NCBI RefSeq assembly: GCF_024502345.1
Contig: NZ_JALDNN010000001.1
Strand: one strand, 5' to 3'
DNA: 64,000 nucleotides
Origin: Escherichia coli
Lineage (GTDB): Bacteria > Pseudomonadota > Gammaproteobacteria > Enterobacterales > Enterobacteriaceae
Within the stretch, counting starts at the first letter, position 1. Each line of letters begins with the position of its first letter. Made by a program: the position numbers and the translations under genes. Positions 27,841-53,435 of this stretch are shown piece by piece. The notes under the pieces were generated by a model. The model was given only the letters and a program-made list of their open reading frames with translations, was not told where the DNA came from and searched no databases.

Positions 27841-28845
<1,005 letters not shown>

Positions 28846-28890: not shown

Positions 28891-29253
28891 ATGTCCAGCA
28901 CATCAGATTGCGGCAACATACAAGACTGTTCCGCGACAGATCATGTCGCGGAGCCAGATCTATCAATGCTCTCGCAAAACGACATTGGGCAACTTTCCGA
29001 GATTTTCCATCTACTGGGGGACCAGTCAAGACTACGAATCCTGCTTTACTGTATGCGTGGTTCGGTCTCTGTAGGCGACATTGCTGAGTCGCTCCAGTTA
29101 TCACAATCTCTGGTCAGTCATCATCTGAGGTTGTTACGAAGTGCAAGGCTTGTTCGCGGAGAGAGAAAGGGTAAGTACATATTTTATAGCATAATGGATC
29201 ACCATGTAAGTCATGTTCTTCAGGACATGGTATTTCACATAGCTGAAGAATAA
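28891..29253 (+). CDS. ArsR/SmtB-family metalloregulatory repressor
   Basis: HTH ...VGDIAESLQLSQSLVSHHLRLLRSARLV...; start codon choice uncertain. Confidence 0.7.
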   Translation: MSSTSDCGNIQDCSATDHVAEPDLSMLSQNDIGQLSEIFHLLGDQSRLRILLYCMRGSVSVGDIAESLQLSQSLVSHHLRLLRSARLVRGERKGKYIFYSIMDHHVSHVLQDMVFHIAEE

Positions 29254-29487
29254 CCCGAATGAATTTTGATAAGTAGAGCTTGTGTAATTCCAACTCACCT
29301 TAGTTTTTCATTACTTTGGTGAGTTGTTTCATCATTAATTTATTAAAACCTTAATAATTAACCTTTTAATAATGAAACCTGCCCCCTTCCCTTGTATGTA
29401 ATAAATACCTGATGGTTCACTATCACCAGATAAAGCGAAGTGAGCAGGCCACCTCATGAAGGAGAAACCTTGCTTTGCAAGCTTATT

Positions 29488-29550
29488 GAATAGCCACGGA
29501 TAATCTAGTTTGTCTGCTTCGTGCCAAAAGCGGACATTGCTACATCACAA
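29488..29550. repeat. solo IS3-family inverted-repeat-like 21-mer followed by a palindromic element (copy 1 of an inverted pair)
   Basis: GAATAGCCACGGATAATCTAG nearly matches the IS end TGAATCGCCACGGATAATCTAG at 33425; then TGTCTGCTTCGTGCCAAAAGCGGACAT...TGCTACATCACAA, inverted relative to the copy at 32483..32519. Confidence 0.5.
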
Positions 29551-29637
29551 TGCGTTATGGTCAACATCAGAATGCAGCCCTTGTGTTGTGACGTGTAGTC
29601 TGGCCTAAACGCAGTTGCACTACATTACCTCGTGGGG

Positions 29638-29886
29638 TCAGCGACGGCCCCGTTTCAGTTCACGTACACAGGGATCATACTCATCTGCATAGCCACCAAA
29701 GTCATGGCTGGGCATGAAGTACCACTTTTCACCTTTCCAACCAGCGATCCGGGTGGTCGGTTTGGTTTTATTCAGAACAACAATACAGACGCCGACGGGA
29801 GACACTGGAGGAAGAAGTCGTTGCACCACACACTCACGATTGCCCACATCAATCCAGTCTTTGACGTGAATTTCAGGATGGTTCAT
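29638..29886 (-). CDS. hypothetical protein (82 aa)
   Basis: ORF only; overlaps a plus-strand ORF (29632..30057); strand choice uncertain. Confidence 0.3.
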   Translation of the reverse strand: MNHPEIHVKDWIDVGNRECVVQRLLPPVSPVGVCIVVLNKTKPTTRIAGWKGEKWYFMPSHDFGGYADEYDPCVRELKRGRR

Positions 29887-36611: not shown

Positions 36612-37832
36612 TGTAGATTCAATTGGTCAACGCAACAGTTATGTGAAAACATGGGGTTGCGGAGGTTTTTTGAATGAGACGAACATTTACAGCAGAGGAA
36701 AAAGCCTCTGTTTTTGAACTATGGAAGAACGGAACAGGCTTCAGTGAAATAGCGAATATCCTGGGTTCAAAACCCGGAACGATCTTCACTATGTTAAGGG
36801 ATACTGGCGGCATAAAACCCCATGAGCGTAAGCGGGCTGTAGCTCACCTGACACTGTCTGAGCGCGAGGAGATACGAGCTGGTTTGTCAGCCAAAATGAG
36901 CATTCGTGCGATAGCTACTGCGCTGAATCGCAGTCCTTCGACGATCTCACGTGAAGTTCAGCGTAATCGGGGCAGACGCTATTACAAAGCTGTTGATGCT
37001 AATAACCGAGCCAACAGAATGGCGAAAAGGCCAAAACCGTGCTTACTGGATCAAAATTTACCATTGCGAAAGCTTGTTCTGGAAAAGCTGGAGATGAAAT
37101 GGTCTCCAGAGCAAATATCAGGATGGTTAAGGCGAACAAAACCACGTCAAAAAACGCTGCGAATATCACCTGAGACAATTTATAAAACGCTGTACTTTCG
37201 TAGCCGTGAAGCGCTACACCACCTGAATATACAGCATCTGCGACGGTCGCATAGCCTTCGCCATGGCAGGCGTCATACCCGCAAAGGCGAAAGAGGTACG
37301 ATTAACATAGTGAACGGAACACCAATTCACGAACGTTCCCGAAATATCGATAACAGACGCTCTCTGGGGCATTGGGAGGGCGATTTAGTCTCAGGTACAA
37401 AAAACTCTCATATAGCCACACTTGTAGACCGAAAATCACGTTATACGATCATCCTTAGACTCAGGGGCAAAGATTCTGTCTCAGTAAATCAGGCTCTTAC
37501 CGACAAATTCCTGAGTTTACCGTCAGAACTCAGAAAATCACTGACATGGGACAGAGGAATGGAACTGGCCAGACATCTAGAATTTACTGTCAGCACCGGC
37601 GTTAAAGTTTACTTCTGCGATCCTCAGAGTCCTTGGCAGCGGGGAACAAATGAGAACACAAATGGGCTAATTCGGCAGTACTTTCCTAAAAAGACATGTC
37701 TTGCCCAATATACTCAACATGAACTAGATCTGGTTGCTGCTCAGCTAAACAACAGACCGAGAAAGACACTGAAGTTCAAAACACCGAAAGAGATAATTGA
37801 AAGGGGTGTTGCATTGACAGATTGAATCTACA
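36612..37832 (+). mobile_element. IS30, complete (1221 bp)
   Basis: Terminal inverted repeats TGTAGATTCAATTGGTCAACGCAACAG at 36612 and its reverse complement ending at 37832; one 383-aa transposase ORF. Confidence 0.9.
36674..37825 (+). CDS. IS30 transposase
   Basis: 383 aa, MRRTFTAEEKASVFELWKNGTGFSEIANILGSKPGTIF..., recognised as the E. coli IS30 transposase. Confidence 0.95.
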   Translation: MRRTFTAEEKASVFELWKNGTGFSEIANILGSKPGTIFTMLRDTGGIKPHERKRAVAHLTLSEREEIRAGLSAKMSIRAIATALNRSPSTISREVQRNRGRRYYKAVDANNRANRMAKRPKPCLLDQNLPLRKLVLEKLEMKWSPEQISGWLRRTKPRQKTLRISPETIYKTLYFRSREALHHLNIQHLRRSHSLRHGRRHTRKGERGTINIVNGTPIHERSRNIDNRRSLGHWEGDLVSGTKNSHIATLVDRKSRYTIILRLRGKDSVSVNQALTDKFLSLPSELRKSLTWDRGMELARHLEFTVSTGVKVYFCDPQSPWQRGTNENTNGLIRQYFPKKTCLAQYTQHELDLVAAQLNNRPRKTLKFKTPKEIIERGVALTD

Positions 37833-38089
37833 GCGGCTTTTTTTAATATGTCCCGTTCGTCGGTAACCCGCTTCAGCTCTTTCTGAAGGCGGCGGATCTC
37901 GGTCTGAGCATCTGACTGTTCTTTATTAGTGGAAGAATCCGGGCCGTACTTCTTTATCCAGGCGTAAAGGCTGTGGGTGGTGATATCGAGACGTGTTGCA
38001 ACGCTGGCAACAGAATAACCGCGATCAACAACCTGTTTGACTGCTTCAATTTTAAACTCTTCGGGATAACGCTTACCGCTCATGGGCAC
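37833..38089 (-). pseudogene. IS3-family transposase OrfA, interrupted near its 3' end by IS30
   Basis: MSGKRYPEEFKIEAVKQVVDRGYSVASVATRLDITTHSLYAWIKKYG...ILKKAAV then IS30; the continuation (YFAKLSD*) lies on the other side of IS30 near 36585..36611. Confidence 0.8.
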
Positions 38090-38317
38090 CTCTCTTTAAG
38101 CCATCTTAAATGACTCTGAGGTGTCTGTTAAACCCGTGGCGATTCAAGAAGGTTGAATATGATTCCCGACTCATTAATGGAACGCTGCATGATGTTATGC
38201 ATTACGGGTTGACATTACGATGTGACGGGCCGGGTTAGCTGTATGGAGCCTGTACACAAGTTTGTGTAATTGCCTGATTTTGATATGTTCAATTCAACAT
38301 CAAAAGCAGGTTACTTT

Positions 38318-38708
38318 ATGGACGAAAAACAGTTGTAGGCTCTGGCTAACGAACTGACCAAAAATCTCAAAACCCCTGACGATCTCAACCAGTTCGATCG
38401 CCTGCTGAAAAAAATCAACGTTGAGCGCCGCCTCAACGCCGAAATGCTCCATCACCTCGGCTACGGTAAACATCAGTCTAAACCGGGTGCCAACTCCCGC
38501 AACGGCTATTTCACAAAAACCGTTACCACCGGCGATGGCCCGCTGGAACTGCGTACGCCGTGCGATCGTGACGGCTCCTTCGAGCCCCAACTGGTGAAGA
38601 AAAACCAGACCCGGATCACCGGGATGGATAACCAAATCCTGTCACTGTACGCCAAAGGGATGACCACCCGTGAGATAGTGGCTGCGTTCAAAGAGTTGTA
38701 TGACGCGG
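38318..38708 (+). pseudogene. IS256-family transposase remnant (N-terminal part, in-frame stop, 3'-truncated)
   Basis: MDEKQL*ALANELTKNLKTPDDLNQFDRLLKKINVERRLNAEMLHHLGYGKHQSKPGANSRNGYFTKTVTTGDGPLELRTPCDRDGSFEPQLVKKNQTRITGMDNQILSLYAKGMTTREIVAAFKELYDADVSPTL; TAG at codon 7; similarity ends near 38708. Confidence 0.7.
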
Positions 38709-39766
38709 ATGTCTCACCGACGCTGGTAGTCCTTCATGCTCCGGAAGGTCAGACTGATGTTGTCTTCACTGCCATCATCAGCAAGCGTGTTTTTAACGGT
38801 AAGATTGACTTTTGGGGAATATTCAGAAATGACAGAATCACAATTATTTTTATTCAAATCAACTTTTTTGCGCTCAGACAAGGGGCAGACTCCTGACCAT
38901 TACTGAAGTCGCCCGCCACGAGCAATTTCAGGGGGAGCTCCGTTTTCTTGCTCGCACCACCGGTATGCAAATCAAGTTTTAAATTAATACGCGCTTTAGG
39001 GATTTCGGACTGAAAGGAAGAATTAGACATGGCTGTCCCTGTTCTATGGAGTGATAGAAACGGTCAATGCCAGTGAAAAATAAATAAGAAAAAATTACCC
39101 AGCCAGAACAACTTTCCGGTTCGCGTCATCCGACGTAAATAAAAATCCCGGAACCAAAAAAAGCGGGCGCATTCCATCCACCAGCATGTCGACACTGTAT
39201 TTTCTGGGTATTTGTCTGAAATGAAAAATTTCGGATAAGGCCCAATGGCTGGAGTTTGGGAACGTTCCCTGCCAGATCGAAAATGAAAAAATGTAACAAA
39301 GATTTACATTCCTGGCTTTTAACAAAAAAAATATCATCTTTCTGATTTATAAAAATTTTACACCATAACCCTTCAGGCCCCGCGGGATAAGGATGTACAG
39401 AAAATGATCAATTTGGCTTAGGGTGTATATTTGTACAAAATATCACCAGTCACGTGAAATATCTGATTTTGTACTTTTATCAGAAATTGAGAAGCTGGAC
39501 GTGACTGAGCATGTGAAAAACTGGCGACAGTTTCAGGTTTCCATCATTTCTTATTATTCACGTAAACCGGGCTTATTTATTTTTTTTCAGATTAAAGGAA
39601 TTGCAACGCCCGGACTTTACGCATATCTCATACCTGTACCAGCGATATGAATATCTCAGCCGCCGGTGCATTAGCGCGACCAGGAACAACACCCGTTCGG
39701 TTTACAGAAAGACAGACGTGGACAGTGATGAGCTTTGCTGCGGGTTGAGAACGGTTGTTTTACTGC

Positions 39767-40372
39767 TCAAGGTTGTAACACGATCCGATTCGACTCCAGC
39801 ATGACAGCCGACAGTGTATGAGCCGCAAAAACAGCCATACAGGCTGACAAGTCGCCATTCACAAGAAACTCAACCGGCGCAACGAGTTTCCCTCCATCCG
39901 AAAATCCGCAGGTCAGTGCCGACTTCCTTACCAGCAGTGCATTCGCATCGCTGTATTCCAGGGCCAGAAGCGTTTCATTGTCCCAGTCCCTGTCACTCAC
40001 CGCTGCATTGACCCAGCCCCGCGATTTAAGCTGTTCAATTGCGTACGTCAGCCGATACAAATCCGACTGCGCTGACACCGGTCCGGTGCACGAAGACCAC
40101 AGATATTCCAGACGACTGAATAAGCTGGCGGCAAGGCCTTTGTTACGCCCCAGCGTCAGCAATCCCTCAATATCAGATGCGATTGCACGTGGAAACCGTT
40201 TTTGCTTATACGCCACCGTTAACCAGCGCAGTATAAATGCATGCGTGCTGAGTGGCGACAATGCCTGACCATCCTGCTGAGCGGTACGTAAGGCGACAAG
40301 GGCGCACCAGGCGAAATGCGCAAGTGCTGTGACGGTTTGTTCCGGGGGTAAGGTATCGTGAGCTTTTTTCAT
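39767..40372 (-). CDS. hypothetical protein (201 aa), first gene of a CP4-like module
   Basis: ORF; same strand and tight spacing with neighbours. Confidence 0.45.
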   Translation of the reverse strand: MKKAHDTLPPEQTVTALAHFAWCALVALRTAQQDGQALSPLSTHAFILRWLTVAYKQKRFPRAIASDIEGLLTLGRNKGLAASLFSRLEYLWSSCTGPVSAQSDLYRLTYAIEQLKSRGWVNAAVSDRDWDNETLLALEYSDANALLVRKSALTCGFSDGGKLVAPVEFLVNGDLSACMAVFAAHTLSAVMLESNRIVLQP

Positions 40373-40448
40373 TCAGGGATTATATCGGCGCTGCAGACAC
40401 CGGGGAAGACCTGGATAACTCCCCCATTAATTAGAGAAGCTATTACTT

Positions 40449-41015
40449 TCACGGACAAATCATCCCCGTTCTGGCCGTTGCTATTGGCTCTGACATGGCC
40501 TTAACATGCACGGTAAGCTGGTTAAAGGGTGTTGCGAAGACTCCCTGAGCGACGCGGTTAATAATGATCTGCGTCATACTCGTTACACCGTCAGTGCAGG
40601 CGGTACCGGTCACCTTTTGCCATGCGTCGGCGATGATGGCGTTAAGCCCCGGAGGCGCACTGTCGGTCAGTTGCAGGTTTCGCCCTGTACCCAGCGTATC
40701 GAGATTGAGCAGCAGCACCATTTTGCACTCCGGTGCGCTGGCCGTCTCCCATATCCAGCGTAACAGCGTCGGGAGTGAACGATGTCGTGCCTGCTGACGC
40801 TGGCGCGAATATTCGCCGGTGCGCTGCCAGACTTCAGAGTGAAAACGCAGAATCAATGACCGGTATTCGCTCATGGCTTCACGATACGGTAGCGCCAGCG
40901 TAAAGCTGAATGCCGCCAGTCGCGGGTAATGGTCAACGGCCTGTTGCAGAAATGCACGCGTGCTGACGGCATCCGCGCTGACAGCATCAGACGCCCGTAT
41001 GTAAGAATGATTCAT
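40449..41015 (-). CDS. YagK/YfjJ-like hypothetical protein (recurring paralog family, type A)
   Basis: Clear similarity to ORF 62146..62688 (AFLQQAVDHYPRLAAFSFTL vs RFVQQGVDHWPHLLAFHFTL; LRWIWE...KMVLLLNLD vs LRWLRE...RCLLLLSQT); family name from memory of CP4 prophage proteins. Confidence 0.45.
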   Translation of the reverse strand: MNHSYIRASDAVSADAVSTRAFLQQAVDHYPRLAAFSFTLALPYREAMSEYRSLILRFHSEVWQRTGEYSRQRQQARHRSLPTLLRWIWETASAPECKMVLLLNLDTLGTGRNLQLTDSAPPGLNAIIADAWQKVTGTACTDGVTSMTQIIINRVAQGVFATPFNQLTVHVKAMSEPIATARTGMICP

Positions 41016-41090
41016 AATGCAGACTCTCTTTAGGTTAAATCAGGGAGGACACCGCCTCTACGGCGGTATCTGGTTCATAAAGACGGGGAA

Positions 41091-41507
41091 CTATCTGGTA
41101 CTGCAGCAGTAGTTTCTCTGCCAGTGCGCTTCTTCGATGCTGTAGATACCAGTCAGACACCGGGGACAGTGCTTCACGCCCTGGTAATGGTCGCCGCACC
41201 ACACGCAGTACCAGGAGAGCACCATTACCGTCGCTTCCAGCCCGTTGATGAGACTGCGCAGCTTTCGGTGCCGGGCTTCGGTTTTCACTTCCGGGTCAAG
41301 GTGGGCGCAGGCCATCAGCACATGCCGGGCCACGCTCTGCTGGTCATGTTCAAACCACGGCGGCTCCCCGTATGTCCCCGCATGGAGCACCAGTCGACAG
41401 CCGCAGGACGCGCAGCTCCATATCTGCCCCGGCGCACTCACGGCCTCCCCGGCTGTCGCGAAGTGGCCTTCGCGGTCATTGGCCAGATAACATTTCAGCA
41501 TGCGCAT
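41091..41507 (-). CDS. Cys/His-rich putative zinc-binding protein (paralog 1)
   Basis: Shares the pattern SC..C.......PWFEH....C.....W.C..CG..Y.G...C..C.TG with ORF 41495..41944. Confidence 0.45.
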   Translation of the reverse strand: MRMLKCYLANDREGHFATAGEAVSAPGQIWSCASCGCRLVLHAGTYGEPPWFEHDQQSVARHVLMACAHLDPEVKTEARHRKLRSLINGLEATVMVLSWYCVWCGDHYQGVKHCPRCLTGIYSIEEAHWQRNYCCSTR

Positions 41508-41944
41508 GCCGTCACTTCCTCTATCCGGTTGGTATCAGCACGCACATCACTGTGCTCGCCCGTCCGGCAGGTGAGGCAGTAGCGCTCACCGTGGTAATCA
41601 CTGCCGCAGCCGTGACAGTGCCAGTCTGCGTAGAAAACCAGGGGACGGGCTTCCGGTACATAAGACTGCAGTTGCCGGATATGGCGGGTCTCCCTCACCC
41701 CGGGCTTTACATACGGGCAGTGCTGTCGACCGTTCTCCGAAAGCTTTGCTGCATGATGTTCAAACCACGGACGTTCGGTGTCGTATTCAGGATGGTACTG
41801 CAGGGCACTGGCACACAGATGGCAGCTGTAGCGGTCATACGGCGCGGTCTGCGCGGTTATGGCTCCCGTGAGACGGCCGTTGCCGTCCAGAGCCATAAAC
41901 GATTTTGCATACATAGTGGTACTCTCCTTACCGCCAGACGACAC
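41495..41944 (-). CDS. Cys/His-rich putative zinc-binding protein (paralog 2)
   Basis: As above; overlaps the downstream gene by about 13 nt. Confidence 0.45.
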   Translation of the reverse strand: MSSGGKESTTMYAKSFMALDGNGRLTGAITAQTAPYDRYSCHLCASALQYHPEYDTERPWFEHHAAKLSENGRQHCPYVKPGVRETRHIRQLQSYVPEARPLVFYADWHCHGCGSDYHGERYCLTCRTGEHSDVRADTNRIEEVTACAC

Positions 41945-42203
41945 GCAGGCGTCAGCCGTCCCGGTACGGGCAGCGTGGCAGGGTGAATGGCGGTTCAGTT
42001 ATGCGTTAGCGGGTCGGTACGGTTGGTGGTCGGCACCGGAATACAGAAAGGTTACGGTTGTGCAGGTGCGTCGGTGGGTCTGAAACAAACGGGACAGGGT
42101 CTGGCGCCACAGTACTGTCGCCGGCAACGGGGACACGTCCAGCGAACCGGGATGGCCTGTGGCTGAGTGCGGCGTCGTTTTTCCATTCAGATATCCTCCC
42201 TGC

Positions 42204-42443
42204 TCAGACGCCACGGGAATCAGCAATACGCTGCTGCATCCAGGCTTCCACCTCGCTTCTGCGCCAGCGGGAGCTGCGCCCCAGCTTGATGGGTTTCGGA
42301 AACAACCCGTCGCCAATCAGTTTGTAAAACCATTTGTCGGTCATCCCGGTAAACGTGGTGATAAAGGTCATGTCGATAAGCGGGTCCTGAGCTGAAAGCA
42401 GTGTGTCAGGGCTGGCATTAATATTCGTATTCAACGTGGTCAT
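42204..42443 (-). CDS. AlpA-like phage regulatory protein / excisionase-family HTH
   Basis: ...LIDMTFITTFTGMTDKWFYKLIGDGLFPKPIKLGRSSRWRRSEVEAWMQQR...; highly similar to ORF 62914..63144. Confidence 0.65.
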   Translation of the reverse strand: MTTLNTNINASPDTLLSAQDPLIDMTFITTFTGMTDKWFYKLIGDGLFPKPIKLGRSSRWRRSEVEAWMQQRIADSRGV

Positions 42444-42595
42444 GGTATTTTTCTCCCTCTGAGGATATGGCTATCGGGAGACGTCCGGTGGTGGTTGAAT
42501 CATGGGGTTACCGGTTCTCCTCAGAGGATAGGGGAACGTTGTAAAAAATTACCCGGCCCGCACAATCAGGCCTGATGAATCGAGATATGTCTGGC

Positions 42596-43201
42596 TCAGC
42601 CACGGCTGCAACCGAAGTTACGCTCACCGTCACCGGTGATTTTGGTCTCCAGCTTGGCTAAATAGGCCGCCTGCGACAGGGCCTGTTGCAGTTGAGCACC
42701 ATCGCCACGTGTCAACCATGAGACTGGACTCGCCGGGAAACGAGCCAGAACGGCATGCGCCTGTGCATCCACCTTCAGGGCGCTGCACCACGCTTGTTTA
42801 ATCATACCTGCAAGCGAATCCGGGTCTTTGTAATCTCCCGGTCCGCACCACGTATCGCGGTTCAGCAACAGCACCGCGTGGTAATGCTTCTTCCCTTTGA
42901 TTTCACCAAACTCCCGCGCCCAGATAAAACGCAGCGTGGTCGGCCAGACGCGTTTGCCCTCGCGACGTTGACGCGTCTGAAGGGCATCAATCCGGGCTTT
43001 CAGGGAATCGGTGAAGCGGGAGATAACAGCAGCATCGGTGGCCGCTGGCGTATCCGGCAGACGGAGGTCAACACGCAGGGCCAGTAAGCGGGTGTAAGCG
43101 TTAAGAGCGCAACTGAAGGTATCAGCGATGCGTTGCTGCCAGTAAGGGTCGTATGTGTAACTCATTAAAATGGACTCCGGTGGGTTATCGTTCATAACCA
43201 T
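42596..43201 (-). CDS. YagK/YfjJ-like hypothetical protein (type B)
   Basis: ...KHYHAVLLLNRDTW...; related to ORF 63213..63803. Confidence 0.45.
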   Translation of the reverse strand: MVMNDNPPESILMSYTYDPYWQQRIADTFSCALNAYTRLLALRVDLRLPDTPAATDAAVISRFTDSLKARIDALQTRQRREGKRVWPTTLRFIWAREFGEIKGKKHYHAVLLLNRDTWCGPGDYKDPDSLAGMIKQAWCSALKVDAQAHAVLARFPASPVSWLTRGDGAQLQQALSQAAYLAKLETKITGDGERNFGCSRG

Positions 43202-43762: not shown

Positions 43763-45311
43763 AATAGGTTGTGGTTACCCTGAAAAGCAAATATTACCCC
43801 AGAGGGATGTATATACCCGGGGCAAGAGCCCCTGTACCAGTCCCTCATTGCTGTCATGATATTATTACCCCGTTCAATAAGCCCGATAAATAATCGTTAT
43901 CGGGACTACTGCTAAAACGCCCTGTAACGCATCAGGAGCGCCATATTCATACTAACCACAGATTTCCACTATCGTGTTATTCAATGCGCTTATGCAGGCT
44001 CACAGGAAGCTATGGCGGTATAAGACACTACAGCGCTCAATTACTTATTAAATAGCTTGCGGTGATTACCAGGATAATCACCCTATTCCACGTCACCTCA
44101 ATCGGGTTATTCTGTTTACGATACAATCATGACTATTATCACCAACACGGATAATGCCCCGTTTACAGTCGTTACCAATGGCCTTGTTTACACATATCAA
44201 AAAACTTTCAGGGATAACGGGTCACCGTAGTATCTGTAACTGACAGGTATTGTAAGCGTCAATATCAGGCAGACAGAGCAATACCGACAGGCTTACTACA
44301 GGTTAGTTCACTGACTGAGCATTTAACGCTCATCACTAATACGCAGACCAGTAATAAACCATTGATACTCACCTGCTGATTTTCAGGCATGACCATTCAC
44401 CCAAAACGTTACTGTTAACCAGTAACCACCCTGTCGTTATGATTATTAGATTACTGATGTTAATCATCTTCACTTTTATCCTGACGAGGACTAGTCAATG
44501 GTAATATCGACTCAATTCAATTCTGTTTTCTTAATGATAGATTTTTAATGAGTGCTAAACATTCAGGTTGTGACTACATTGAATGGTGTATTTCTTACCT
44601 GATGGCAATGATTGCTCAATGGATACCATCCAATAGTACTATCCCCTTAGTGAATACCTTCAGATAATAATACCTCCCAGGCATAACCCACTTACTGATA
44701 ACACATCATCGATTACTGTTACAAATGATAAGACCCCTTCTTTAATATATTAATACCAATCCAACACGCCAGGCATAACAATAGCTATGAAGATAACCAC
44801 GCCAGACAGCACTTACCTACAACAAACGCCTGCATCAGTTACTCTGGAATTATCTTTTTTCAATAACATGAAAATAGACACCACGTCATATCAAATAACC
44901 TCAATCAAATTAACCCCGTATCATCACTGCCCGCAGAAGCCCTCAATCCTGATTATGAGCAACAAAATGGAAATACCTCATGGCAGCCCGACCTGATACC
45001 AGAAATGCCCCCTGAAGCGAACCAGGCACCATGATGGGGATGAAAACGAAAGCATGCAGGAGAACAAGATAACCTATTGAGACGATACTCATCCAGTAAA
45101 CAGAGAAGCATCTGAGAGATAAACAAAGAAAATGACAACTTTAAAACCATGGTAAAACCTTGTCAAAACCAGTATAAATCAACAATAAAACCTCACGATG
45201 ACTACCAGATGTGTTTTTAAGTGACGATAAAACCATCATCGTGATACTGTGTAGCTACAACAATCACCACCATAACCACTACTATGTAGTTTACGATTAC
45301 AGGTATCCACA

Positions 45312-46280
45312 ATGGTTGTACATTACGACAATGGCAGACAACATCTTATAAAAACCCGTGACCTGAGAGTCTGTGCTTTTTATGCCGGGTGGCTGGGTGT
45401 TAATAAAATAATTAACACCCGTGACATTCCTCACCAGGATGCAGAAAGTTGTCGACAGGCACTCAACAAACTGATTAATCAGTTCATACCGAATGCAGAA
45501 CAGCGGGCAAGACTTTTTTCTGATATGGAAACAGCCCGTGATGAAAACATCCTTCCGCTGGAAAGTTTTGACTGGCTAGAACAGGATGAACGGGCAACAT
45601 TCTGGTTATGGGCGTATATTTGCAAGGCCGGAGACTACGAACTTGGTATTGACAAACCAGCAAATGCAGAGTTCGGAAAGAACTGGTATCAGCGAATGAA
45701 TCTGAGTGTATCTCCGACAAGCCACCAGGAAAGAATTAATATTATCATCTCTTTTTTCGACAACATTATTATTCCGACCCCACCGGTAAATCATCTCAAG
45801 CGCCAGGTCATGGACAGGCTGAAAGACCAGTGGAAAAATATTTACAGCAAACCAGCTCCGCTGAAATGGTTACCTAATGAAGAAGACGCGGTACTGTGGG
45901 CATGGAACAGCCTCAAATCGCTTCAGGAAGAAAGAAATGCGCCCACTATCGGGCTCTCATTAAATATTTCAACGCCAGGAATGAGTACCTGGTTTACCCC
46001 CCTGAGTCATTCTGAACGCAATTTAGCCCTGCGCACGGCGATCGACTTATGGGACGATGCACCGGATACAAAGCGTTTATTCCTTCTGAACCTGAATAAA
46101 GCCTGGAACCAGCAAAAATTACGTCAGTCCCGTACCGATAAAAAAGCACTCAATACGTACCTGAAGAACGAAACAAAAACTCGACTGGACTTTATGGCAG
46201 AACGTAGCGGAGTTCGCATCAGTGATATGCTGGAAATGCTGATTAATGACCATTACCGAAAAACCTGTGGTGGTGAGTGA
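45312..46280 (+). CDS. hypothetical protein (322 aa), orphan gene after a 1.5-kb AT-rich non-coding region
   Basis: Long ORF with normal amino-acid composition; no family recognised. Confidence 0.5.
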   Translation: MVVHYDNGRQHLIKTRDLRVCAFYAGWLGVNKIINTRDIPHQDAESCRQALNKLINQFIPNAEQRARLFSDMETARDENILPLESFDWLEQDERATFWLWAYICKAGDYELGIDKPANAEFGKNWYQRMNLSVSPTSHQERINIIISFFDNIIIPTPPVNHLKRQVMDRLKDQWKNIYSKPAPLKWLPNEEDAVLWAWNSLKSLQEERNAPTIGLSLNISTPGMSTWFTPLSHSERNLALRTAIDLWDDAPDTKRLFLLNLNKAWNQQKLRQSRTDKKALNTYLKNETKTRLDFMAERSGVRISDMLEMLINDHYRKTCGGE

Positions 46281-46629
46281 GGGCTTTGCGCTAAAAACAA
46301 GGTGAGCGGAGGCAGTAATACAGACCAGAAATGACATTCAAAATAATTTCAGACCTATATTACCGGTGTGAGAACGGCAGCAGAAGTGCTGCCGTTTTGT
46401 TATTTCACTCACGGAGGTTAATGTGTCCAGTAAGAACAAACGGGGTCCCGATACCCTGTTACCGTCGTTATTCCTTCTCCCGGGTCAACTGTCCCACAAA
46501 ATACCCGTGCGTATGCTTCTCGCGCTAAGTCACAGCTATGCTTTCTGTTCCGGTACCCAGGTCTCTCTGATACACGGTCCGCCAGCTCATGAAGGCGGCT
46601 ATTTATTGCCAGTAATAAGGGAGAAAGAA

Positions 46630-46926
46630 ATGCATTGTCCGAATTGCGGTTCGCAAAACATACGACTGCGCCATGTGGGTAAAAAGACGGGTGGGGTCAT
46701 TGGCGCAACAGCCGGAGGCATTGCCGGGCTTGAAGGAGCCTCCACCGGTGCGCTGATAGGTTCAGTCATTCCGGTTGTCGGTACGATAGCCGGAGGCCTC
46801 ATTGGTTTTCTGTCCGGCGCCTGTGCTGGTGCGGTGGCAGGCTCTCTGGCCGGAGAACAACTGGACGGTACCGTCTTTGATGAATACGGCTGCACGCAGT
46901 GCGAGCATATCTTCAGTGCACCGTAA
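46630..46926 (+). CDS. small zinc-ribbon / glycine-zipper membrane protein
   Basis: ORF 46423..46926 trimmed to MHCPNCGSQN (GGGAG RBS); CPNC...CTQC Cys pairs flanking a Gly-rich hydrophobic segment. Confidence 0.45.
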   Translation: MHCPNCGSQNIRLRHVGKKTGGVIGATAGGIAGLEGASTGALIGSVIPVVGTIAGGLIGFLSGACAGAVAGSLAGEQLDGTVFDEYGCTQCEHIFSAP

Positions 46927-47112
46927 CGTTAATAAGGGTCAGCCCATCCTGCACAAAGCCTGAGCCGCTGACCGTACTCGCTACGGCACGACTGATGACA
47001 GGGCGTGTCAGCATGCTGTCGTCATTTCAGCTACCTGGCACTAACCCTTTGTTAATTCTCCTGTTTACTGAAAGATGAATTTTACTTTTTCTTTTCCGCC
47101 ATTACGGGGGAT

Positions 47113-47127
47113 GGACATAACGTGTCC
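47113..47127. promoter_or_regulatory. palindrome GGACA-N5-TGTCC (copy 3 of 3), candidate operator
   Basis: GGACAtaacgTGTCC, 60 nt upstream of the ATG at 47188. Confidence 0.45.
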
Positions 47128-47187
47128 CTCCCCGCCCGCATAATAACCGCATGAAATATCAACCTATTTATCGCACACGGAGCGTCC

Positions 47188-47916
47188 ATGCAACGACCCG
47201 ATGAAGAGGCCCGCTACGACCGGCTGGCCGTCAGATTGTCGGTCATTATCAGCCGGTTAATGGCCGGAGAAACGCTGACCCTTCAGACACTGTCCGGTGA
47301 GTTTGGTGTATCGATACGCACCCTGCGTCGTGACTTACATCAACGGCTGGTCCACCTCGACATTATCGGGGAGAACGGCACGTATCGGCTCAGTGAGAGC
47401 GCCACGCGTGATCACTCTCCGGGGGCCGTTTCCTTTGCCCGCAGTACCGGTATCGCACGCATTATCCCGTCGCAGAACCGGCAACTGATGCACCTGCTGA
47501 TGAATGAAACGGGCACCTCACCCTGCTTTATCTGGCACGACTTACCGCCAGCATGGACACAGGCTGACAGTTTTCATCGTCTGGCCGAAGCCATTTGTCA
47601 TCACCGGGTGGTCAGTCTGCTGGTCGGCGGTGTCCGTCACGATGAGCAGGAGCCTTACCGCCTGATTTACCGGCATCAGCACTGGTATCTGGTCGTCTGT
47701 TGCCGGGGGAGCCTTCGGGTGTTCCGGCTGGAAGACATTATCTCGGCCTCACTCTCAGAGCAAACCTTCCGTCGCCGGAGCGAAATCAGTTCGCTCATTA
47801 CTGAAGAGGGATTTATCAGCGCACTGCCCCACTTTCGCTTTATCAGTGATGTCATTCACACCTTCAGGGAACAACACCCTGAACATCCATCCAGACCCAA
47901 AGGAGTCAAATCGTGA
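47188..47916 (+). CDS. HTH transcriptional regulator, YfjR-like (second copy)
   Basis: RLAVRLSVIISRLMAGETLTLQTLSGEFGVSIRTLRRDLH; paralog of ORF 4249..4962; stop overlaps the next start. Confidence 0.6.
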   Translation: MQRPDEEARYDRLAVRLSVIISRLMAGETLTLQTLSGEFGVSIRTLRRDLHQRLVHLDIIGENGTYRLSESATRDHSPGAVSFARSTGIARIIPSQNRQLMHLLMNETGTSPCFIWHDLPPAWTQADSFHRLAEAICHHRVVSLLVGGVRHDEQEPYRLIYRHQHWYLVVCCRGSLRVFRLEDIISASLSEQTFRRRSEISSLITEEGFISALPHFRFISDVIHTFREQHPEHPSRPKGVKS

Positions 47917-48179
47917 AACCTGTCGAAGGCCCTCTGCTGCTCTTCACCCTGATGTTGTCTGCCGTAACCCTGAGCGGCTGTGGCGACAAAAATGAACGCG
48001 AGTTTATCCGGGGATGCAAATCAGGCGGCGGTACTACCGCCGTCTGCGGATGTATCCGGGATGACCTCAAAACGAAATATACGCACGGGGAGCTGGAGAA
48101 AATGAACCAGCAATACGGTTATGTCCCCCCGCGCTTCATGGACAACATGCTGAGCGCTGCTCAGCAGTGCAGAAAATAA
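47913..48179 (+). CDS. small lipoprotein
   Basis: Signal peptide with lipobox LSGC (MKPVEGPLLLFTLMLSAVTLSGCGD...). Confidence 0.55.
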   Translation: MKPVEGPLLLFTLMLSAVTLSGCGDKNEREFIRGCKSGGGTTAVCGCIRDDLKTKYTHGELEKMNQQYGYVPPRFMDNMLSAAQQCRK

Positions 48180-48191
48180 GGAAATCTGAAC

Positions 48192-48503
48192 ATGGCGCTT
48201 GTCATTAAATATTTCGCGATTGCCTTCGCCATCGCGCTTGTGGTCGTGCTGTTTAACGTGTTCGGGAGTACCGGCGAGATACGCAGTTTTGGTCAGGGAA
48301 TGGAATATCTGTTCTGGATGACGCTTGGGCCCGGAGCCGGTATGACGGTCGGTGCTGCTCTTCGACAATGGCTGATGCCGGATGCGGTATACACCCGCGA
48401 AGGAATGACCGGATTACTCAAGGCCCGTCTGTTCTGGCTTGTGGGCCCACAGTATATCGGCTGGCTGGCCGGACTTATCGTCGTGGGTAAACAACTCATG
48501 TAA
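48192..48503 (+). CDS. small membrane protein
   Basis: Three hydrophobic segments; ORF only. Confidence 0.45.
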   Translation: MALVIKYFAIAFAIALVVVLFNVFGSTGEIRSFGQGMEYLFWMTLGPGAGMTVGAALRQWLMPDAVYTREGMTGLLKARLFWLVGPQYIGWLAGLIVVGKQLM

Positions 48504-48549
48504 CACGGCTGCCCCCCAACAACATTTTTGACTGAGAAGGAAAAATACC

Positions 48550-49020
48550 ATGCGATTCATGCACGCCATCCTGTCAGCAGGATTACTGACCTTTGCCATC
48601 ACGGCACAGGCGGTCCCCAATATGTGGAGCAGTGGCTTCGGTATGGGCGTCACCGAGTACATCATCACCAGCCCGGAAAACGTGATGATGAACCTGAACT
48701 GCACCGGCAACCCTGACGACCAGAATATCCTGCAGCATCACGTCATGCTCACCCTGCCTGACGGCAGCGGTGCCGATTCACAGGATGAGAAAACCGCCAT
48801 CACCGTCGTCACGGATGACCAGACGTTCCCCCTGCCGTCCTCTCTGGGCTGGCGTAACGGCGACAACGCCTGGCTGTCGTTCATTGATGCCATCAGAAAA
48901 GCAACGTCGTTTGAGATTTACGTCAACGACAAACAGGTGGGGCACTTTACCCCTTCGGCTGGAAACGTTCACAAGGTTCTGGCTGATATGCCCGAATGCA
49001 CGACACTGACCGCCGGGTAA
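48550..49020 (+). CDS. secreted protein of unknown function
   Basis: Signal peptide MRFMHAILSAGLLTFAITAQA. Confidence 0.5.
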   Translation: MRFMHAILSAGLLTFAITAQAVPNMWSSGFGMGVTEYIITSPENVMMNLNCTGNPDDQNILQHHVMLTLPDGSGADSQDEKTAITVVTDDQTFPLPSSLGWRNGDNAWLSFIDAIRKATSFEIYVNDKQVGHFTPSAGNVHKVLADMPECTTLTAG

Positions 49021-49068
49021 CCCGGCGCATCCCCGGTTTACAGCAAAATCAATCAAGGACAATACGAT

Positions 49069-49581
49069 ATGACCGACATTTCGACACTCAGCCAGCGACT
49101 GACGACGCCAACCCTGCATTTTGTTCTACTCACCGTCGCCACCTGCGGCATCTGGCCGTTACTGTGGCTGTACCGAAAACAGCAGATTATCAGCGACACC
49201 ACCGGATATCCGGTTTGCGGCAATCTGTTTATCATCTGGCTCGCCGTCTGTTTTGGGCTCGGACGACAGTTCGGCGTGATGGCCTCACCGGACCTGGCGG
49301 GCTACTACACGGGCAGCGATACACTGTTGGCCTTAAGCGGCATTCTGTCGCTCACCTGCGGCGTGATGTACATCGTCTGGGCCTTTAAGGCCAGAGCAGC
49401 ACTGCGACACTATGCGCTGAACACCTTCCGGTTTGACCTGAAGATGAATGCGTTTTATACCGTGGTGCTCAACGTCTTCTACATTACATACTGCATCAAC
49501 GATATGCCGCAGGCACTGGCGAAGCACCGCATTATTCATGGTCAGGCCCCTGTGCCGCCGGAGTCTCCGTCACCGCAGTAA
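49069..49581 (+). CDS. membrane protein of unknown function
   Basis: Four predicted TM segments; ORF only. Confidence 0.45.
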   Translation: MTDISTLSQRLTTPTLHFVLLTVATCGIWPLLWLYRKQQIISDTTGYPVCGNLFIIWLAVCFGLGRQFGVMASPDLAGYYTGSDTLLALSGILSLTCGVMYIVWAFKARAALRHYALNTFRFDLKMNAFYTVVLNVFYITYCINDMPQALAKHRIIHGQAPVPPESPSPQ

Positions 49582-49663
49582 CGCAGCTCTCCTCTTATTA
49601 TCCGGCCGGGGCATTCCTGTGTGCCCCAGATTCATCCGGATCCCCCCTCTGAGATTTGACCCA

Positions 49664-49885
49664 ATGACATTACTGAAAATCGTGCTCAACACCCTGCGTC
49701 AGGTGCTGACGTGGTGCGCCAGCAGCCGGGCGCAGCAGTTTGTGGAAGACCACTTCCGCGAAGAAGGCTATGACGAAGACAGTATTTACATCGCCAGACA
49801 GGCGGCAACCCTGCTCGCAGGTGCCTTAATCACAGCGCTCATGGAACAGATACTGCAGCTTATTGCCACACACTTAACCCACTGA
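49664..49885 (+). CDS. hypothetical small protein
   Basis: ORF 49448..49885 trimmed to MTLLKIV...; weak RBS. Confidence 0.25.
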
Positions 49886-49940
49886 TGCCCTGCTCACTGA
49901 GCGGGGCATTTTGTTTTATGCCATTCATCAGGAACTGAAT

Positions 49941-50174
49941 ATGCAAGTCACTGACGATACGTCGTTACCGCCAGGGCAATTCACCCGCCGACAGGCTGAA
50001 GCCGTGGTCACGCTTTACCACAACGTCACTATAGAAGATGACCAGGGTACGCACTTTCGGCTGGTTATTCGCGACAGCGAGGGGACGTTAATCTGGCGGG
50101 CCTGGAATTTTGAAGCCAGTGCCGGGGAATGGCTTAACCGCTATCTGCTCAGCCACGGGATCCCCAAACACTGA
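49941..50174 (+). CDS. hypothetical small protein
   Basis: ORF 49911..50174 trimmed to MQVTDDT.... Confidence 0.3.
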
Positions 50175-50277
50175 CACACCACAGCTTAACCCAATAGCGA
50201 CCACACAAAAAAGCCATGCTCCCACAGGAGCATGGCTGTTTTGTTTATGCCGTTAAATCAACAATAAGGAATTTACC

Positions 50278-50673
50278 ATGAGACTAGCCAGCCGCTTTGG
50301 ACGGACAAACCAGATCCGTCGCGATCGTCCGTTAACCCGCGAAGAACTGATGCAGGTCGTTCCCAGCGTATTCAGTGCAGATCGCCACGGTTCCAGGAGC
50401 GAAAAATACGCTTACATACCCACCATTACTCTGCTCGAAAATCTTCAACGCGAAGGCTTTGAACCCTTCTTCGCCTGCCAGTCACGCGTACGCGACCCTG
50501 ACCGCCGGGAGCACACCAAACATCTGCTGCGCCATCTTTGTAGACCGGAGAATGATGTTTGGATGAAAGCGAGTTTTGGTACCCTCATCATTGAGGGTAC
50601 CAACAGCAAAATACTCGGCGAATGCTATTGTCTAAGCACAGCGCCAAGCCTTAGCGGCACGAATAGTTGTTAA
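50278..50673 (+). CDS. DUF932-like (YfjQ-like) protein, probably 3'-truncated
   Basis: MRLASRFGRTNQIRRDRPLTREELMQVVPSVF... resembles N-termini of CP4-prophage DUF932 proteins as I recall them; ORF ends 2 bp before the convergent res gene. Confidence 0.35.
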   Translation: MRLASRFGRTNQIRRDRPLTREELMQVVPSVFSADRHGSRSEKYAYIPTITLLENLQREGFEPFFACQSRVRDPDRREHTKHLLRHLCRPENDVWMKASFGTLIIEGTNSKILGECYCLSTAPSLSGTNSC

Positions 50674-50675
50674 CC

Positions 50676-53414
50676 TTACTCAGCTTTAGCAAACTGCTGG
50701 GTGAAGTAAGCCAATGAATTAGCTTCTTTTACGGCATCATGCGGAATGAGTAAGTATTTCCAAGGTTTGCCACCGTGCTGTGCAAGGTATTCACTGGCAT
50801 GACTACACCATTTCACACCACTGCGGGCTTTTTCGGTGACTTCCTCATTCCAACTGCCGTCTTGGTTTTGATGTTGAGTACTTTTAGTTTCAATCATCAA
50901 TACATAGTCGGCGGTTTCAGCAACGAAATCCGGCACGTATTCAGGATGCTCGCTACCGCGTTTGTAGTACATCTTGAATTGGCCTTTGGCAGGCTTAAAC
51001 CACTTCTCGCAGTCGCGTTCTAAAATCACCGCAAAACGGCGCTCAGTGTCTGAATCAAACTTTTGCAATGGGTATAGACAACGGCTAAAGCCGCCAAAGA
51101 GCATTTGTTTGATGCGACTGACATCGCGTACTGTATCACGGTAGCTTTGCACCGGCTGGTCTTGCGCTATGGTGTAAGCGCAGTCACGTAAGGTACTAAA
51201 GCCACTGCGTACATCGACGACGTACTCGGTTGCTTCTTCAAAGAAGTGGTTGTTCAGTTGCGCATGAATTAACTTCGCAATCGCATCACTCTGGTTTTGC
51301 AGAATGTTCTCAACCACATCGTCGTCGTTTTCAGCGGCCAGTGTATTGACAGCTTGAGTGGCTAGGTCAAACAAAAGTTCAGCTTGCTCGTCGTAAGGAA
51401 TATCGTCGTAATCGAACAGCTTCTTCAAAATATAGTTTTGTTTCACCGGCTCGTAGTTGCCCGAATCGCCTTCGCCACGAATGGTTTGGTGATTGTCTTG
51501 CAGGCTTTGTTGAATCAGAGTTCGGTCGATAGGTTTTAAACCTTTAATGGCAGCAATGTCCAAATCGAACGGGTGATAGCCGGTACGTACTTCACCTGAT
51601 GGTGAAACAATAATACGCGGAATATCTATGGTGTTATCCACCGTGAGCTGGGTGACTTGCTCAACAATCGCCGCAATATCCACCGATTCTTCAGTAAATA
51701 GCTCCCGTTGCTCTTGGGTTAACTGAGCTTTTACTTGTTCGGTGATCTGTGCTTTTACCTCAGTCGTTAACAATGCTTTGCTGGTCGGCGCATCGGTAGG
51801 GCGTGTTTGATATTGCTTGATCACGTCCAATGCAGCGCGGGCAACGGTTTGTTGGTTAGGCGTGGTATAAGTGGCTTTAGGTTCTTGTACCTCACGGTTA
51901 CCGTCTGCACCGGTTGCGGTTACACCTGAACCAGTCAGTTGCTGCTCTAGGTTCGATTTAACCTGCACACTTTGTTTGGTTACATCGTCTTCTGGGCGAT
52001 CTAATACGCGTGTTTTCAGGCGCAGTGGGTTATTCGGGTCGTTAGCCTCATCAACAATTTCTTGGAATTTGTCGTGCGCAACAATGCTCAGCGTATCGAC
52101 GGCTTCAACACCTGTACGTTTGCCATAAGGTAAACGCAAACCACGGCCAATTGACTGTTCAATTAGGGTTCTGGCGTTGGCTGCACGTAGTGGCACAATG
52201 GTGTACAGGTTAGTAACGTCCCAACCTTCTTTCAGCATGTTAACGTGAATGACGATCTCGGTTGGCTCATCGACATGCTCAACATTGAGCAGTGCTTGAA
52301 TAGTTTCTTCTTCTTTTTTACTGCTATCCACTTGAATGACTTTGCCACGGTAGCGGCCGTCAAACACTGTTTCAAGTTTGGTTAAAAGCTCTGCTGCATG
52401 CGTGGTATCACGGGCAATCACCAACATAAAAGGCTTAACTAACTTAGCATCGTTTTCATGTGCATAAGTGATTAAATCCACCTTGGTTTGCTCATGTAAA
52501 CGAATACCGTCCATTAACTTAATGGTTTCTAGTTCGTCTTTATCATATTGGCTGGCATCAAAGTTACGCTGAGTAACAACGGCAGGCTCTTTAACAAAAC
52601 CATCATCCATGGCACAGGCCAATGGGTAATCAATCACCACATTTTTAAAGTGCACAGGGCCACGACTTGATTCGGTAAATGGTGTGGCCGTTAGCTCTAA
52701 TGCGAATAGTGGATTAAGCTCATTGAGCGCACGCATACCGGCATCGGCACGATAGCGATGCGATTCGTCCATCAGCAGCACTAAGTCAGGTAAGTTCGAT
52801 AGATACTCAAAGTAGCTTTCGCCTAGGGTTTCCGCTAAACGCTTAATACGCGGGGCTTTGCCTCCACGTACTTCGGTGTTAATTTTCGCGATGTTAAACA
52901 CATTGATCCGAACCGAACCAAATAGATCGCCCATGACTTGTGCGCCGCGGCTCTCATAGTTATCACCGGTGATCACTTCTGGCGGTGCTAGCACAAAATC
53001 GGTAATGCCTTTAAACACGTACTTCGGTGAGGCGGGCGAGAAATCGCTGATCAGCTTTTCATAAATAGTCAGGTTAGGTGCCAACACAAAATAATTGCGA
53101 ATGCCATGTACCTGATACAAATAGGTAATAAACGCCCCCATCAAACGGGTTTTACCTACACCTGTTGCCAAGGCAAAACACAGTGAAGGAAAGTCACGTT
53201 CAAAATCGCTGAGCTTAGGAAACTGCGCTTTTAAGGTTTCTAATAGCTCCGGCACATCGCGTTTTGGGTTCAGTAGTTTGTGCTCAGAAGCACTAATCGC
53301 CACTGCCAACGCACGCAGCGAATCTTGCTGCGGCTGGCGTAAGCTTAAACGGCCAATAATATTATTAATGGCACGTAATTGGTCGGGTTTTAAGCTTGAT
53401 AAATCCATGGTCAT
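50676..53414 (-). CDS. type III-like restriction enzyme Res subunit (SF2 helicase plus C-terminal PD-(D/E)xK nuclease)
   Basis: 912 aa; Walker A LATGVGKTRLM; DEAH-like motif LVLLMDESHR; C-terminal ...YVPDFVAETADYVLMIETK... reads as a PD-(D/E)xK core. Confidence 0.75.
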   Translation of the reverse strand: MTMDLSSLKPDQLRAINNIIGRLSLRQPQQDSLRALAVAISASEHKLLNPKRDVPELLETLKAQFPKLSDFERDFPSLCFALATGVGKTRLMGAFITYLYQVHGIRNYFVLAPNLTIYEKLISDFSPASPKYVFKGITDFVLAPPEVITGDNYESRGAQVMGDLFGSVRINVFNIAKINTEVRGGKAPRIKRLAETLGESYFEYLSNLPDLVLLMDESHRYRADAGMRALNELNPLFALELTATPFTESSRGPVHFKNVVIDYPLACAMDDGFVKEPAVVTQRNFDASQYDKDELETIKLMDGIRLHEQTKVDLITYAHENDAKLVKPFMLVIARDTTHAAELLTKLETVFDGRYRGKVIQVDSSKKEEETIQALLNVEHVDEPTEIVIHVNMLKEGWDVTNLYTIVPLRAANARTLIEQSIGRGLRLPYGKRTGVEAVDTLSIVAHDKFQEIVDEANDPNNPLRLKTRVLDRPEDDVTKQSVQVKSNLEQQLTGSGVTATGADGNREVQEPKATYTTPNQQTVARAALDVIKQYQTRPTDAPTSKALLTTEVKAQITEQVKAQLTQEQRELFTEESVDIAAIVEQVTQLTVDNTIDIPRIIVSPSGEVRTGYHPFDLDIAAIKGLKPIDRTLIQQSLQDNHQTIRGEGDSGNYEPVKQNYILKKLFDYDDIPYDEQAELLFDLATQAVNTLAAENDDDVVENILQNQSDAIAKLIHAQLNNHFFEEATEYVVDVRSGFSTLRDCAYTIAQDQPVQSYRDTVRDVSRIKQMLFGGFSRCLYPLQKFDSDTERRFAVILERDCEKWFKPAKGQFKMYYKRGSEHPEYVPDFVAETADYVLMIETKSTQHQNQDGSWNEEVTEKARSGVKWCSHASEYLAQHGGKPWKYLLIPHDAVKEANSLAYFTQQFAKAE

Positions 53415-53435
53415 TATAATTATCCTTATTAACCG

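Follow-up and report, generated by a model that had tools for sequence, protein, structure and literature searches.

Distantly related AlpA/YfjJ modules of two neighboring CP4-57/CP4-6-type islands in Escherichia coli

Why does one stretch of Escherichia coli DNA hold two similar minus-strand gene blocks, each with an AlpA-type regulator gene between YfjJ-like genes, and what is the pair of adjacent Cys/His-rich genes that one block carries and the other lacks? The stretch (here, the window) comprises 64,000 nucleotides (nt) of contig NZ_JALDNN010000001.1 (RefSeq assembly GCF_024502345.1), and its blocks lie at 39767-43201 (module 1) and 61434-63803 (module 2). CP4-57-type islands are among the commonest carriers of defense, resistance, and virulence cargo in E. 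coli, Klebsiella, Citrobacter, and Salmonella, and their replication and spread are poorly understood. Here, we report that two separate CP4-57/CP4-6-type islands lie side by side as a mosaic in the window, that its modules are distant relatives and not a duplication, and that the Cys-rich pair is a regular component of the island backbone operon, whose first gene in module 1 encodes a probable Rep-like nickase.

Two islands and their modules

Megablast matched the halves of the window to different islands: 38114-50533 matches an island of E. coli EH09-18-41 (island 1) at 99.95% identity, and 50524-64000 matches another island, in APEC E16002 (island 2), at 99.0%. Both are built to a shared plan, with variable cargo, an AlpA/YfjJ operon reading into that cargo, and a divergent outward block encoding a 322-amino-acid (aa) protein, a YfjP-like GTPase, a helix-turn-helix (HTH) protein, DUF905, DUF932, an antirestriction protein, RadC, DUF987, and YeeU/CbtA. 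Window positions 45312-50533 are collinear with the EH09-18-41 island, which runs on to YeeU/CbtA. The combination by which CP4-57/CP4-6-type islands were recognized (AlpA, YfjJ/YagK, and a distal DUF932/antirestriction/RadC/YeeU-CbtA block) was found, and the islands themselves are ordinary members of this kind.

Where the islands meet, the DUF932 gene of island 1 is cut short and abuts the methylation-associated defense system (MADS) cargo of island 2. In APEC E16002, an insertion sequence (IS) element, IS66, adjoins the point matching this junction and is missing from the window, which suggests that an IS-mediated deletion fused the islands. The ends of both islands lie outside the window or are deleted; no tRNA or tmRNA gene was found in the 64-kb window, and a tyrosine integrase gene is present in its 760-19379 block.

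Sequence inspection and domain scans confirmed both minus-strand blocks with the coordinates and gene order given by a first-pass annotation, a model's reading of the letters and open reading frames (Table 1). YfjJ copies are named here by transcription order, so that the 5' YfjJ is that annotation's "YfjJ-like B" and the 3' YfjJ its "YfjJ-like A." Both AlpA copies score above the PF05930 cut-off of 21 bits (35.0 and 41.6 bits). Module 1 is a complete copy of the canonical operon described below, and module 2 is a reduced, degenerate copy, which lacks both Cys-rich genes and DUF2913 and keeps a short zinc-ribbon gene. In the last gene of module 2, the match to NF052300 covers residues 28-217 of the ECs1377-family protein, and the true start probably lies near 62057.

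Pairwise alignment of the modules, the check that the first-pass annotation had proposed, returned significant similarity, strongest between the AlpA proteins (77% identity, E value of 2.5e-38). The 3' YfjJ-like proteins are 26% identical (blastp, E value of 3e-10), and the 5' proteins are 23% identical at a marginal E value of 0.03 (blastp). A homolog search with the module 2 5' gene recovered only close E. coli relatives and no Pfam domain; we assign it to the YfjJ family because hhalign aligned its family with intact YfjJ/YagK (95.9% probability, E value of 5.8e-9, 180 columns). The family of the module 1 3' paralog aligned likewise with intact YfjJ (97.2%, E value of 4.7e-11), and this paralog matches the 5' copy of its own module by blastp (E value of 3.5e-7). 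Between the last genes of the modules, DUF2913 and ECs1377, no similarity was found. The paralogy proposed for the two blocks thus holds for AlpA and the 3' YfjJ, holds for the 5' genes by profile-profile comparison, and fails for the last genes.

The first-pass annotation had left a choice between two related integrative elements and an internal duplication inside one element. Duplication would fit the shared strand, the similar gene order, and the spacing of ~20 kb. At the DNA level, however, similarity between the modules is confined to 176 nt of alpA (77% identity); the YfjJ-like pairs are only 23-26% identical, the last genes are unrelated, and the two halves of the window match (identity of at least 99%) separate islands in separate E. 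coli genomes, so that we regard duplication as vanishingly improbable. The other choice is supported by the matches to different islands of the same architecture.

Table 1. Features of the two modules and of the junction between the islands
Feature	Position	Strand	Evidence
Module 1 5' YfjJ/YagK	42596-43201	minus	YagK_YfjJ_C PF11726, E 2e-45; RefSeq start 43165
Module 1 alpA, AlpA/excisionase-type HTH regulator	42204-42443	minus	PF05930, E 1.3e-8
Module 1 mini zinc-ribbon open reading frame, 44 aa, unannotated	42052-42186	minus	homologs at same position
ZnR1, AlpA-proximal Cys/His-rich gene	41495-41914	minus	DUF7828 E 1e-29, Zn_ribbon_11 E 9e-11
ZnR2, distal Cys/His-rich paralog	41091-41507	minus	DUF7828 E 4e-33, Zn_ribbon_11 E 2e-18
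Module 1 3' YfjJ-like paralog	40449-41015	minus	weak YagK_YfjJ_C, E 2e-3
Module 1 DUF2913, last conserved gene	39767-40372	minus	PF11140, E 5e-20
Island 1/island 2 junction	50524-50533	none	megablast of window onto loci L001 and L002
Module 2 5' YfjJ-like gene, degenerate	63213-63803	minus	YagK_YfjJ_C at E 0.016 only
Module 2 alpA	62914-63144	minus	PF05930, E 1.2e-10
Module 2 mini zinc-ribbon open reading frame, 37 aa, unannotated	62804-62917	minus	tblastn to module 1 mini open reading frame
Module 2 3' YfjJ-like paralog	62146-62688	minus	no Pfam family; blastp to module 1 3' copy
Module 2 ECs1377-family gene, last gene	61434-62093	minus	NCBIfam NF052300, E 2.9e-97

The zinc-ribbon genes and their operon

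The Cys-rich genes of module 1 (ZnR1 and ZnR2) are as similar to each other as had been noticed (33% identity, blastp E value of 1e-18); the PWFEH motif is present in both, and the 13-nt overlap of the ZnR2 start with the ZnR1 stop (41495-41507) is real. Both proteins match DUF7828 (PF25165; 102-113 bits, cut-off 25.7) and Zn_ribbon_11 (PF11682; 42-66 bits, cut-off 24). The span first given for the pair, 41091-41944, holds for the genes and not for its upstream end: ZnR1 most likely starts at ATG 41914 rather than at GTG 41944, because the family-conserved N terminus (MYAKSF) and the RefSeq start agree on that position. In an alignment of 42 diverse members, an N-terminal zinc site (C31/C34...F51-x-H53...C66) and a C-terminal C4 ribbon (W98-x-C100-x2-C103...C113-x2-C116) are invariant or nearly so.

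The first-pass annotation had called the pair unexplained; its setting across Enterobacterales makes it neither a local oddity nor cargo. A scan with the ZnR1 alignment, one genome per species, yielded 23 loci from ~15 genera, which were annotated with purpose-built hidden Markov models (HMMs). The recurrent order is 5' YfjJ, AlpA, small open reading frame (ORF), ZnR1, ZnR2, 3' YfjJ, and DUF2913. Of the 20 species-representative loci whose upstream sequence is long enough, 18 have AlpA and YfjJ upstream of ZnR1 on the same strand; directly after ZnR1, 17/23 loci carry another ZnR gene or its fragments, and DUF2913 keeps its position in L018, L019, L021, L022, and L024 (followed in L022, from Hafnia, by an ECs1377-family gene). 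In an alternative arrangement (L018, L023, L032, L033, and E. coli L003), a short-type YfjJ gene directly precedes ZnR1 and AlpA lies further upstream. Distant metagenomic ZnR members, often a tandem pair, stand immediately downstream of AlpA with YagK/YfjJ beside it. Synteny with AlpA and YfjJ is fixed while the downstream cargo changes completely.

Orthology within the pair is position specific, as judged from a neighbor-joining tree and an identity matrix: AlpA-proximal copies are 42-74% identical across loci, and distal copies are 17-30% identical between clades. The ZnR duplication is therefore ancient, and one partner has stayed conserved as the other diverges fast. The 13-nt overlap is kept in L017-L023, which suggests translational coupling and a ZnR1-ZnR2 heteromer. 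At 50% identity, the family falls into 245 clusters in a set of 1.84 billion representative proteins, and all named organisms among the matches are Enterobacterales. ZnR1 homologs were absent from 50,697 phage records. Of 72,556 plasmids, 29 carried one, 16 of them from Klebsiella, 11 from Escherichia, and the others from Raoultella and Citrobacter; the plasmids listed (12) measure 213-379 kb.

Might the ZnR pair, perhaps with the 3' YfjJ paralog and DUF2913, be a small antiphage defense or counterdefense unit at the first cargo position? The genes border variable cargo that is often defensive (MADS, type I restriction-modification, Dnd), ZnR2 diverges fast, as sensor or specificity proteins often do, and ZnR is dispensable for the basic lifestyle of an island, since K-12 CP4-57 and module 2 lack it (a six-frame search found no ZnR gene in K-12 CP4-57 or CP4-6). 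However, PADLOC 2.0 gave no match for ZnR1, ZnR2, the YfjJ-like proteins, DUF2913, or ECs1377, PHROGs gave none for ZnR, and no enzymatic effector domain was seen; moreover, ZnR1 is conserved like a backbone gene, and the AlpA/YfjJ synteny outlasts every change of cargo. A defense unit is, in our view, unlikely, and we keep the pair in the island backbone.

The first-pass annotation overlooked a further gene, a mini-ORF just downstream of alpA in both modules. The module 1 copy, between alpA and ZnR1, encodes a basic protein with two CxxC pairs (MEKRRRTQPQAIPVRWTCPRCRRQYCGARPCPVCFRPTDAPAQP) behind a strong Shine-Dalgarno sequence (GGGAGGA); the module 2 copy (MKRVVMPVRCQCAKCRRWYCGNQPCPWCWRHSRSSFC) is 60% identical to it (tblastn, E value of 1.3e-8) and begins with an ATG that runs into the alpA stop codon (ATGA). 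The loci with a homolog at this position are L017, L020, L021, L022, L027, L039, L012, and L002, and the genera with a mini-ORF there are Superficieibacter, Siccibacter, Tenebrionibacter, Hafnia, Buttiauxella, and Erwinia. Pairwise dN/dS among five genera is 0.12-0.34, with 13, 11, and 24 variable sites at codon positions 1, 2, and 3, respectively, a pattern indicating purifying selection on the mini-protein. Because the ribbon part of the ZnR HMM detects it (E value of 3.7e-5), we classify it as a stand-alone Zn_ribbon_11-like mini-protein. It is missing from the RefSeq annotation, and its exact sequences are absent from a 15-billion-protein collection.

RefSeq annotates in APEC E16002 a 79-aa "hypothetical protein" (WP_000335228.1, equivalent to ~62639-62878). 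Its frame differs from that of the 37-aa mini-ORF, with which it overlaps, and it may be an annotation error. In the metagenomic locus L012 (5059-5457), the mini-ORF has no start codon of its own and lies in the alpA frame right after the alpA stop; this could reflect read-through, an earlier fusion of AlpA with the ribbon, or a sequencing error.

The position of the mini-ORF bears on another reading, in which the mini-protein, ZnR1, and ZnR2 serve together with AlpA as transcription factors, analogues of P2 Ogr or P4 Delta, and activate island or helper-phage genes. P4 Delta is a tandem duplication of an Ogr-like zinc finger, and the genes in question lie directly downstream of alpA in translational coupling (the ATGA overlap of module 2 and the in-frame mini-ORF of L012), with a mini-protein that is strongly basic (charge, +7.5). 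Against this, Ogr_Delta gave no match to the ZnR proteins of the window at E values up to 0.1 and is not among the 25 most frequent of the 90 families matched by the 42 ZnR members at E values up to 1; phage records hold no ZnR1 homolog, as noted above, and the module showed no genes for hijacking capsids or packaging. We consider such a role quite improbable.

Upstream of alpA, the ~150-nt leader (42444-42595, minus strand) is highly conserved in an alignment of six genera. A terminator scan placed a terminator-like hairpin at 42555-42572, just past the 5' yfjJ stop and with a T run behind it, and a candidate long-range helix pairs CTATCCTCTGAGG with the alpA Shine-Dalgarno region CCTCAGAGGGAG, which it would possibly sequester. 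RNAalifold proposed 28 pairs with almost no covariation. A PPP leader peptide was considered here and rejected, as its frame is not conserved in L017.

Intact and degenerate YfjJ copies and a candidate mechanism

The label "YfjJ-like" is correct as a statement of homology for all four genes but calls for a finer distinction: only the 5' gene of module 1 retains the catalytic HUH (His-hydrophobic-His) metal-binding and Tyr motifs. Its protein carries HYH (H106 and H108) and, further downstream, YLAKLETK (Y180). H106 and H108 are invariant in 23 homologs; Y180-x-x-K183-x-x-x-K187 is invariant or nearly so, with Y180 and K183 invariant in the same 23. K-12 YfjJ and YagK are among the 5' copies that keep HxH and Y-x-x-K-x-x-x-K/R. 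An HUH-nuclease fold is predicted for the 5' YfjJ, together with a weak Pfam match to REP_ORF2-G2P (E value of 3e-5); a PDB sequence search with it returned nothing. As an HUH motif N-terminal of the Tyr is the order of Rep proteins, we treat the 5' YfjJ as a probable Rep-like HUH nickase.

Both motifs are absent from 10/10 of the 3' copies. HxH is replaced by ECK in the 3' paralog of module 1, by MRC in that of module 2, and by EYH in the module 2 5' gene, which also has DFAR in place of YxxK, with Phe for the Tyr. The 3' YfjJ is predicted to be a conserved pseudo-enzyme without catalytic activity; it and the module 2 5' copy are homologous to YfjJ but, on their motifs, should not be classed as active nickases.

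A 454-aa protein (P0273; L006, 2797-4161), found on a single Logan contig, joins a ZnR2-type domain to a C-terminal region of ~310 aa. It was considered as a fusion of ZnR with a YfjJ paralog and set aside as too weak: its C-terminal part has only a REP_ORF2-G2P match at an E value of 0.019, and neither blastp nor phmmer matched it to YfjJ paralogs.

The best explanation as a whole, which we hold to be somewhat probable, is that the two blocks are conserved backbone operons of two CP4-57/CP4-6-type islands and that the operon serves a nickase-based mechanism. Its parts differ in strength. That the blocks are backbone operons of two separate islands is very likely, and that the operon supports nickase-based replication or mobilization with zinc accessory proteins is a tentative proposal that we rate below even chances. 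HUH Rep proteins nick an origin and begin rolling-circle replication. By the proposed mechanism, AlpA would switch on excision and the operon, and the intact HUH protein, the 5' YfjJ, would nick the excised circle at an origin, giving rise to rolling-circle replication or single-stranded DNA. The mini-protein, ZnR1, ZnR2, and the inactive YfjJ paralog would surround the nickase as an accessory or specificity complex, within which the variable ZnR2 may give island-specific recognition.

Several points weigh against this mechanism. Nicking, replication, and complex formation are steps that we infer from sequence, and we found no paper on these proteins. Inside the window, module 2 lacks an intact HUH gene (the next intact HUH copy in the reference island sits just past position 64000). 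ZnR would not be needed for excision as such, because K-12 CP4-57 excises without ZnR genes. ZnR1 and ZnR2 are near neutral (isoelectric points of 6.5 and 7.6), so strong DNA binding is not favored; the AlphaFold2 model of ZnR2 (predicted local distance difference test score of 76) had no fold match in the PDB, and the similarity of the ZnR family to CoiA_N, treated below, lies under the Pfam gathering score. No iterons, convincing origin-like repeats, or convincing conserved hairpins were found near the operon, whether in the 2.2-kb divergent intergenic region or in the leader alignment.

A bolder version holds that the operon is a previously unrecognized nickase-based replication or mobilization apparatus of CP4-like islands, in which a zinc-finger heteromer and a pseudo-nickase direct the HUH enzyme to an island-specific site; we assign it a low probability. 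If true, this apparatus would serve very common CP4-like enterobacterial islands that have no conjugation or packaging genes, and their replication after excision and movement from host to host would become directly testable. If the module is unrelated to mobility, the window is an ordinary case of two neighboring islands with common backbone genes.

Literature searches for YagK/YfjJ, DUF3279, DUF2913, DUF7828, DUF3296, PF11726, PF11682, and inovirus Gp2 found genome descriptions only and no functional study; the extended operon, the distinction of intact from dead YfjJ copies, the position-specific ZnR pair, and the mini-ORF are not described in the literature searched. The analysis turns "hypothetical" genes into a defined, testable module that recurs in ~15 genera. 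The module comprises an apparently active HUH nickase with a conserved inactive paralog, a conserved/variable pair of co-translated zinc-finger genes, and a mini-protein missed by annotation pipelines.

Surrounding cargo and known systems

The cargo of island 2 (50676-61227, minus strand) is a MADS-like cluster, annotated in APEC E16002 as a MAD1 HTH protein, an SNF2-related protein, Abi, AIPR, a DNA methyltransferase, and a DEAD/DEAH helicase. The divergent operons of island 1 flank ~1.5 kb of AT-rich DNA (43770-45310; 35-42% GC) that carries no annotated gene and in which neither an Rfam family nor clear repeats turned up; an Rfam scan of 38000-64000 likewise found no family. Directly downstream of module 1, 36674-39030 holds mobile-element and secretion-system debris, with an IS30 transposase gene (36674-37825) that looks intact, IS3-family and other transposase fragments beside it, and a frameshifted remnant of tssB (type VI sheath). 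Further left are heavy-metal cargo (20596-29680; P-type ATPases and CueR-type regulators) in common with EH09-18-41 and a block (760-19379) with a type I restriction-modification system, a DUF262/GmrSD-like gene, and the tyrosine integrase gene. The region as a whole is pieced together from island segments.

Among Rep-type HUH endonucleases, the 5' YfjJ was compared with the nuclease domains of parvovirus NS1 and AAV Rep, SIRV1 ORF119, pMV158 RepB, the Helitron transposase, and filamentous-phage gpII. It shares with them HxH followed by a downstream Tyr motif and a predicted HUH fold. Unlike them, it has ~200 aa and no helicase domain, its activity is predicted from sequence, and a conserved, catalytically dead paralog is encoded in the same operon.

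The ZnR proteins recall CoiA, a structure-specific endonuclease and D-loop resolvase of competence with a small N-terminal zinc finger. A Pfam scan of the 42 ZnR members at E values up to 1 matched CoiA_N in 14/42 (best E value of 2.4e-7) and DUF7830, below threshold, in 17/42; 10 members scanned singly scored 15.3-22.7 bits for CoiA_N, under the 26.3-bit cut-off. Neither window protein matched CoiA_N at E values up to 0.1, nor did ZnR1 at values up to 1, and a PDB sequence search with the ZnR profile returned nothing. The likeness lies in the CxxC...[WF]FxH...C zinc site of DUF7828, and in CoiA, the finger sits on a structure-specific DNA nuclease. In contrast, the ZnR proteins have ~135 aa, with a C-terminal C4 zinc ribbon instead of a PD-(D/E)XK nuclease domain; they gave no Pfam match to that domain (PF06054) and end ~40 residues past the ribbon. 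As they have no nuclease domain, we do not count them as CoiA family members.

Among islands, the tmRNA-linked islands of Pseudomonas, which are transduced by a jumbo phage, have a likely core that includes a tyrosine integrase gene (intY), alpA, an inovirus-Gp2-like gene, and RadC (10.1101/2024.08.29.610337). They resemble the islands of the window in core genes of this list and in defense-rich cargo, and differ, as the paper describes them, in belonging to another genus, in the presence of YqaJ, and in that no zinc-ribbon genes are reported (10.1101/2024.08.29.610337).

Another close comparison is with CP4-57 and CP4-6 of K-12, islands with P4-type integrases that, like those of the window, hold AlpA and YfjJ/YagK beside variable cargo. 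Kirby and Trempy reportedly found in 1994 that AlpA activates intA and the excision of CP4-57. The synteny comparison with both elements, suggested by the first-pass annotation, agreed for AlpA, YfjJ/YagK, and the distal block (YfjP-like GTPase, DUF932, antirestriction, RadC, DUF987, and YeeU/CbtA) and failed for the remainder of module 1: each K-12 element has a single intact YfjJ/YagK gene and, by six-frame search, no ZnR, mini-ORF, inactive YfjJ paralog, or DUF2913. Orientation differs as well. In CP4-57, alpA, yfjI, and yfjJ are co-oriented with the distal block, with the cargo between them, whereas in the window, the operon and that block diverge, and the operon reads into the cargo.

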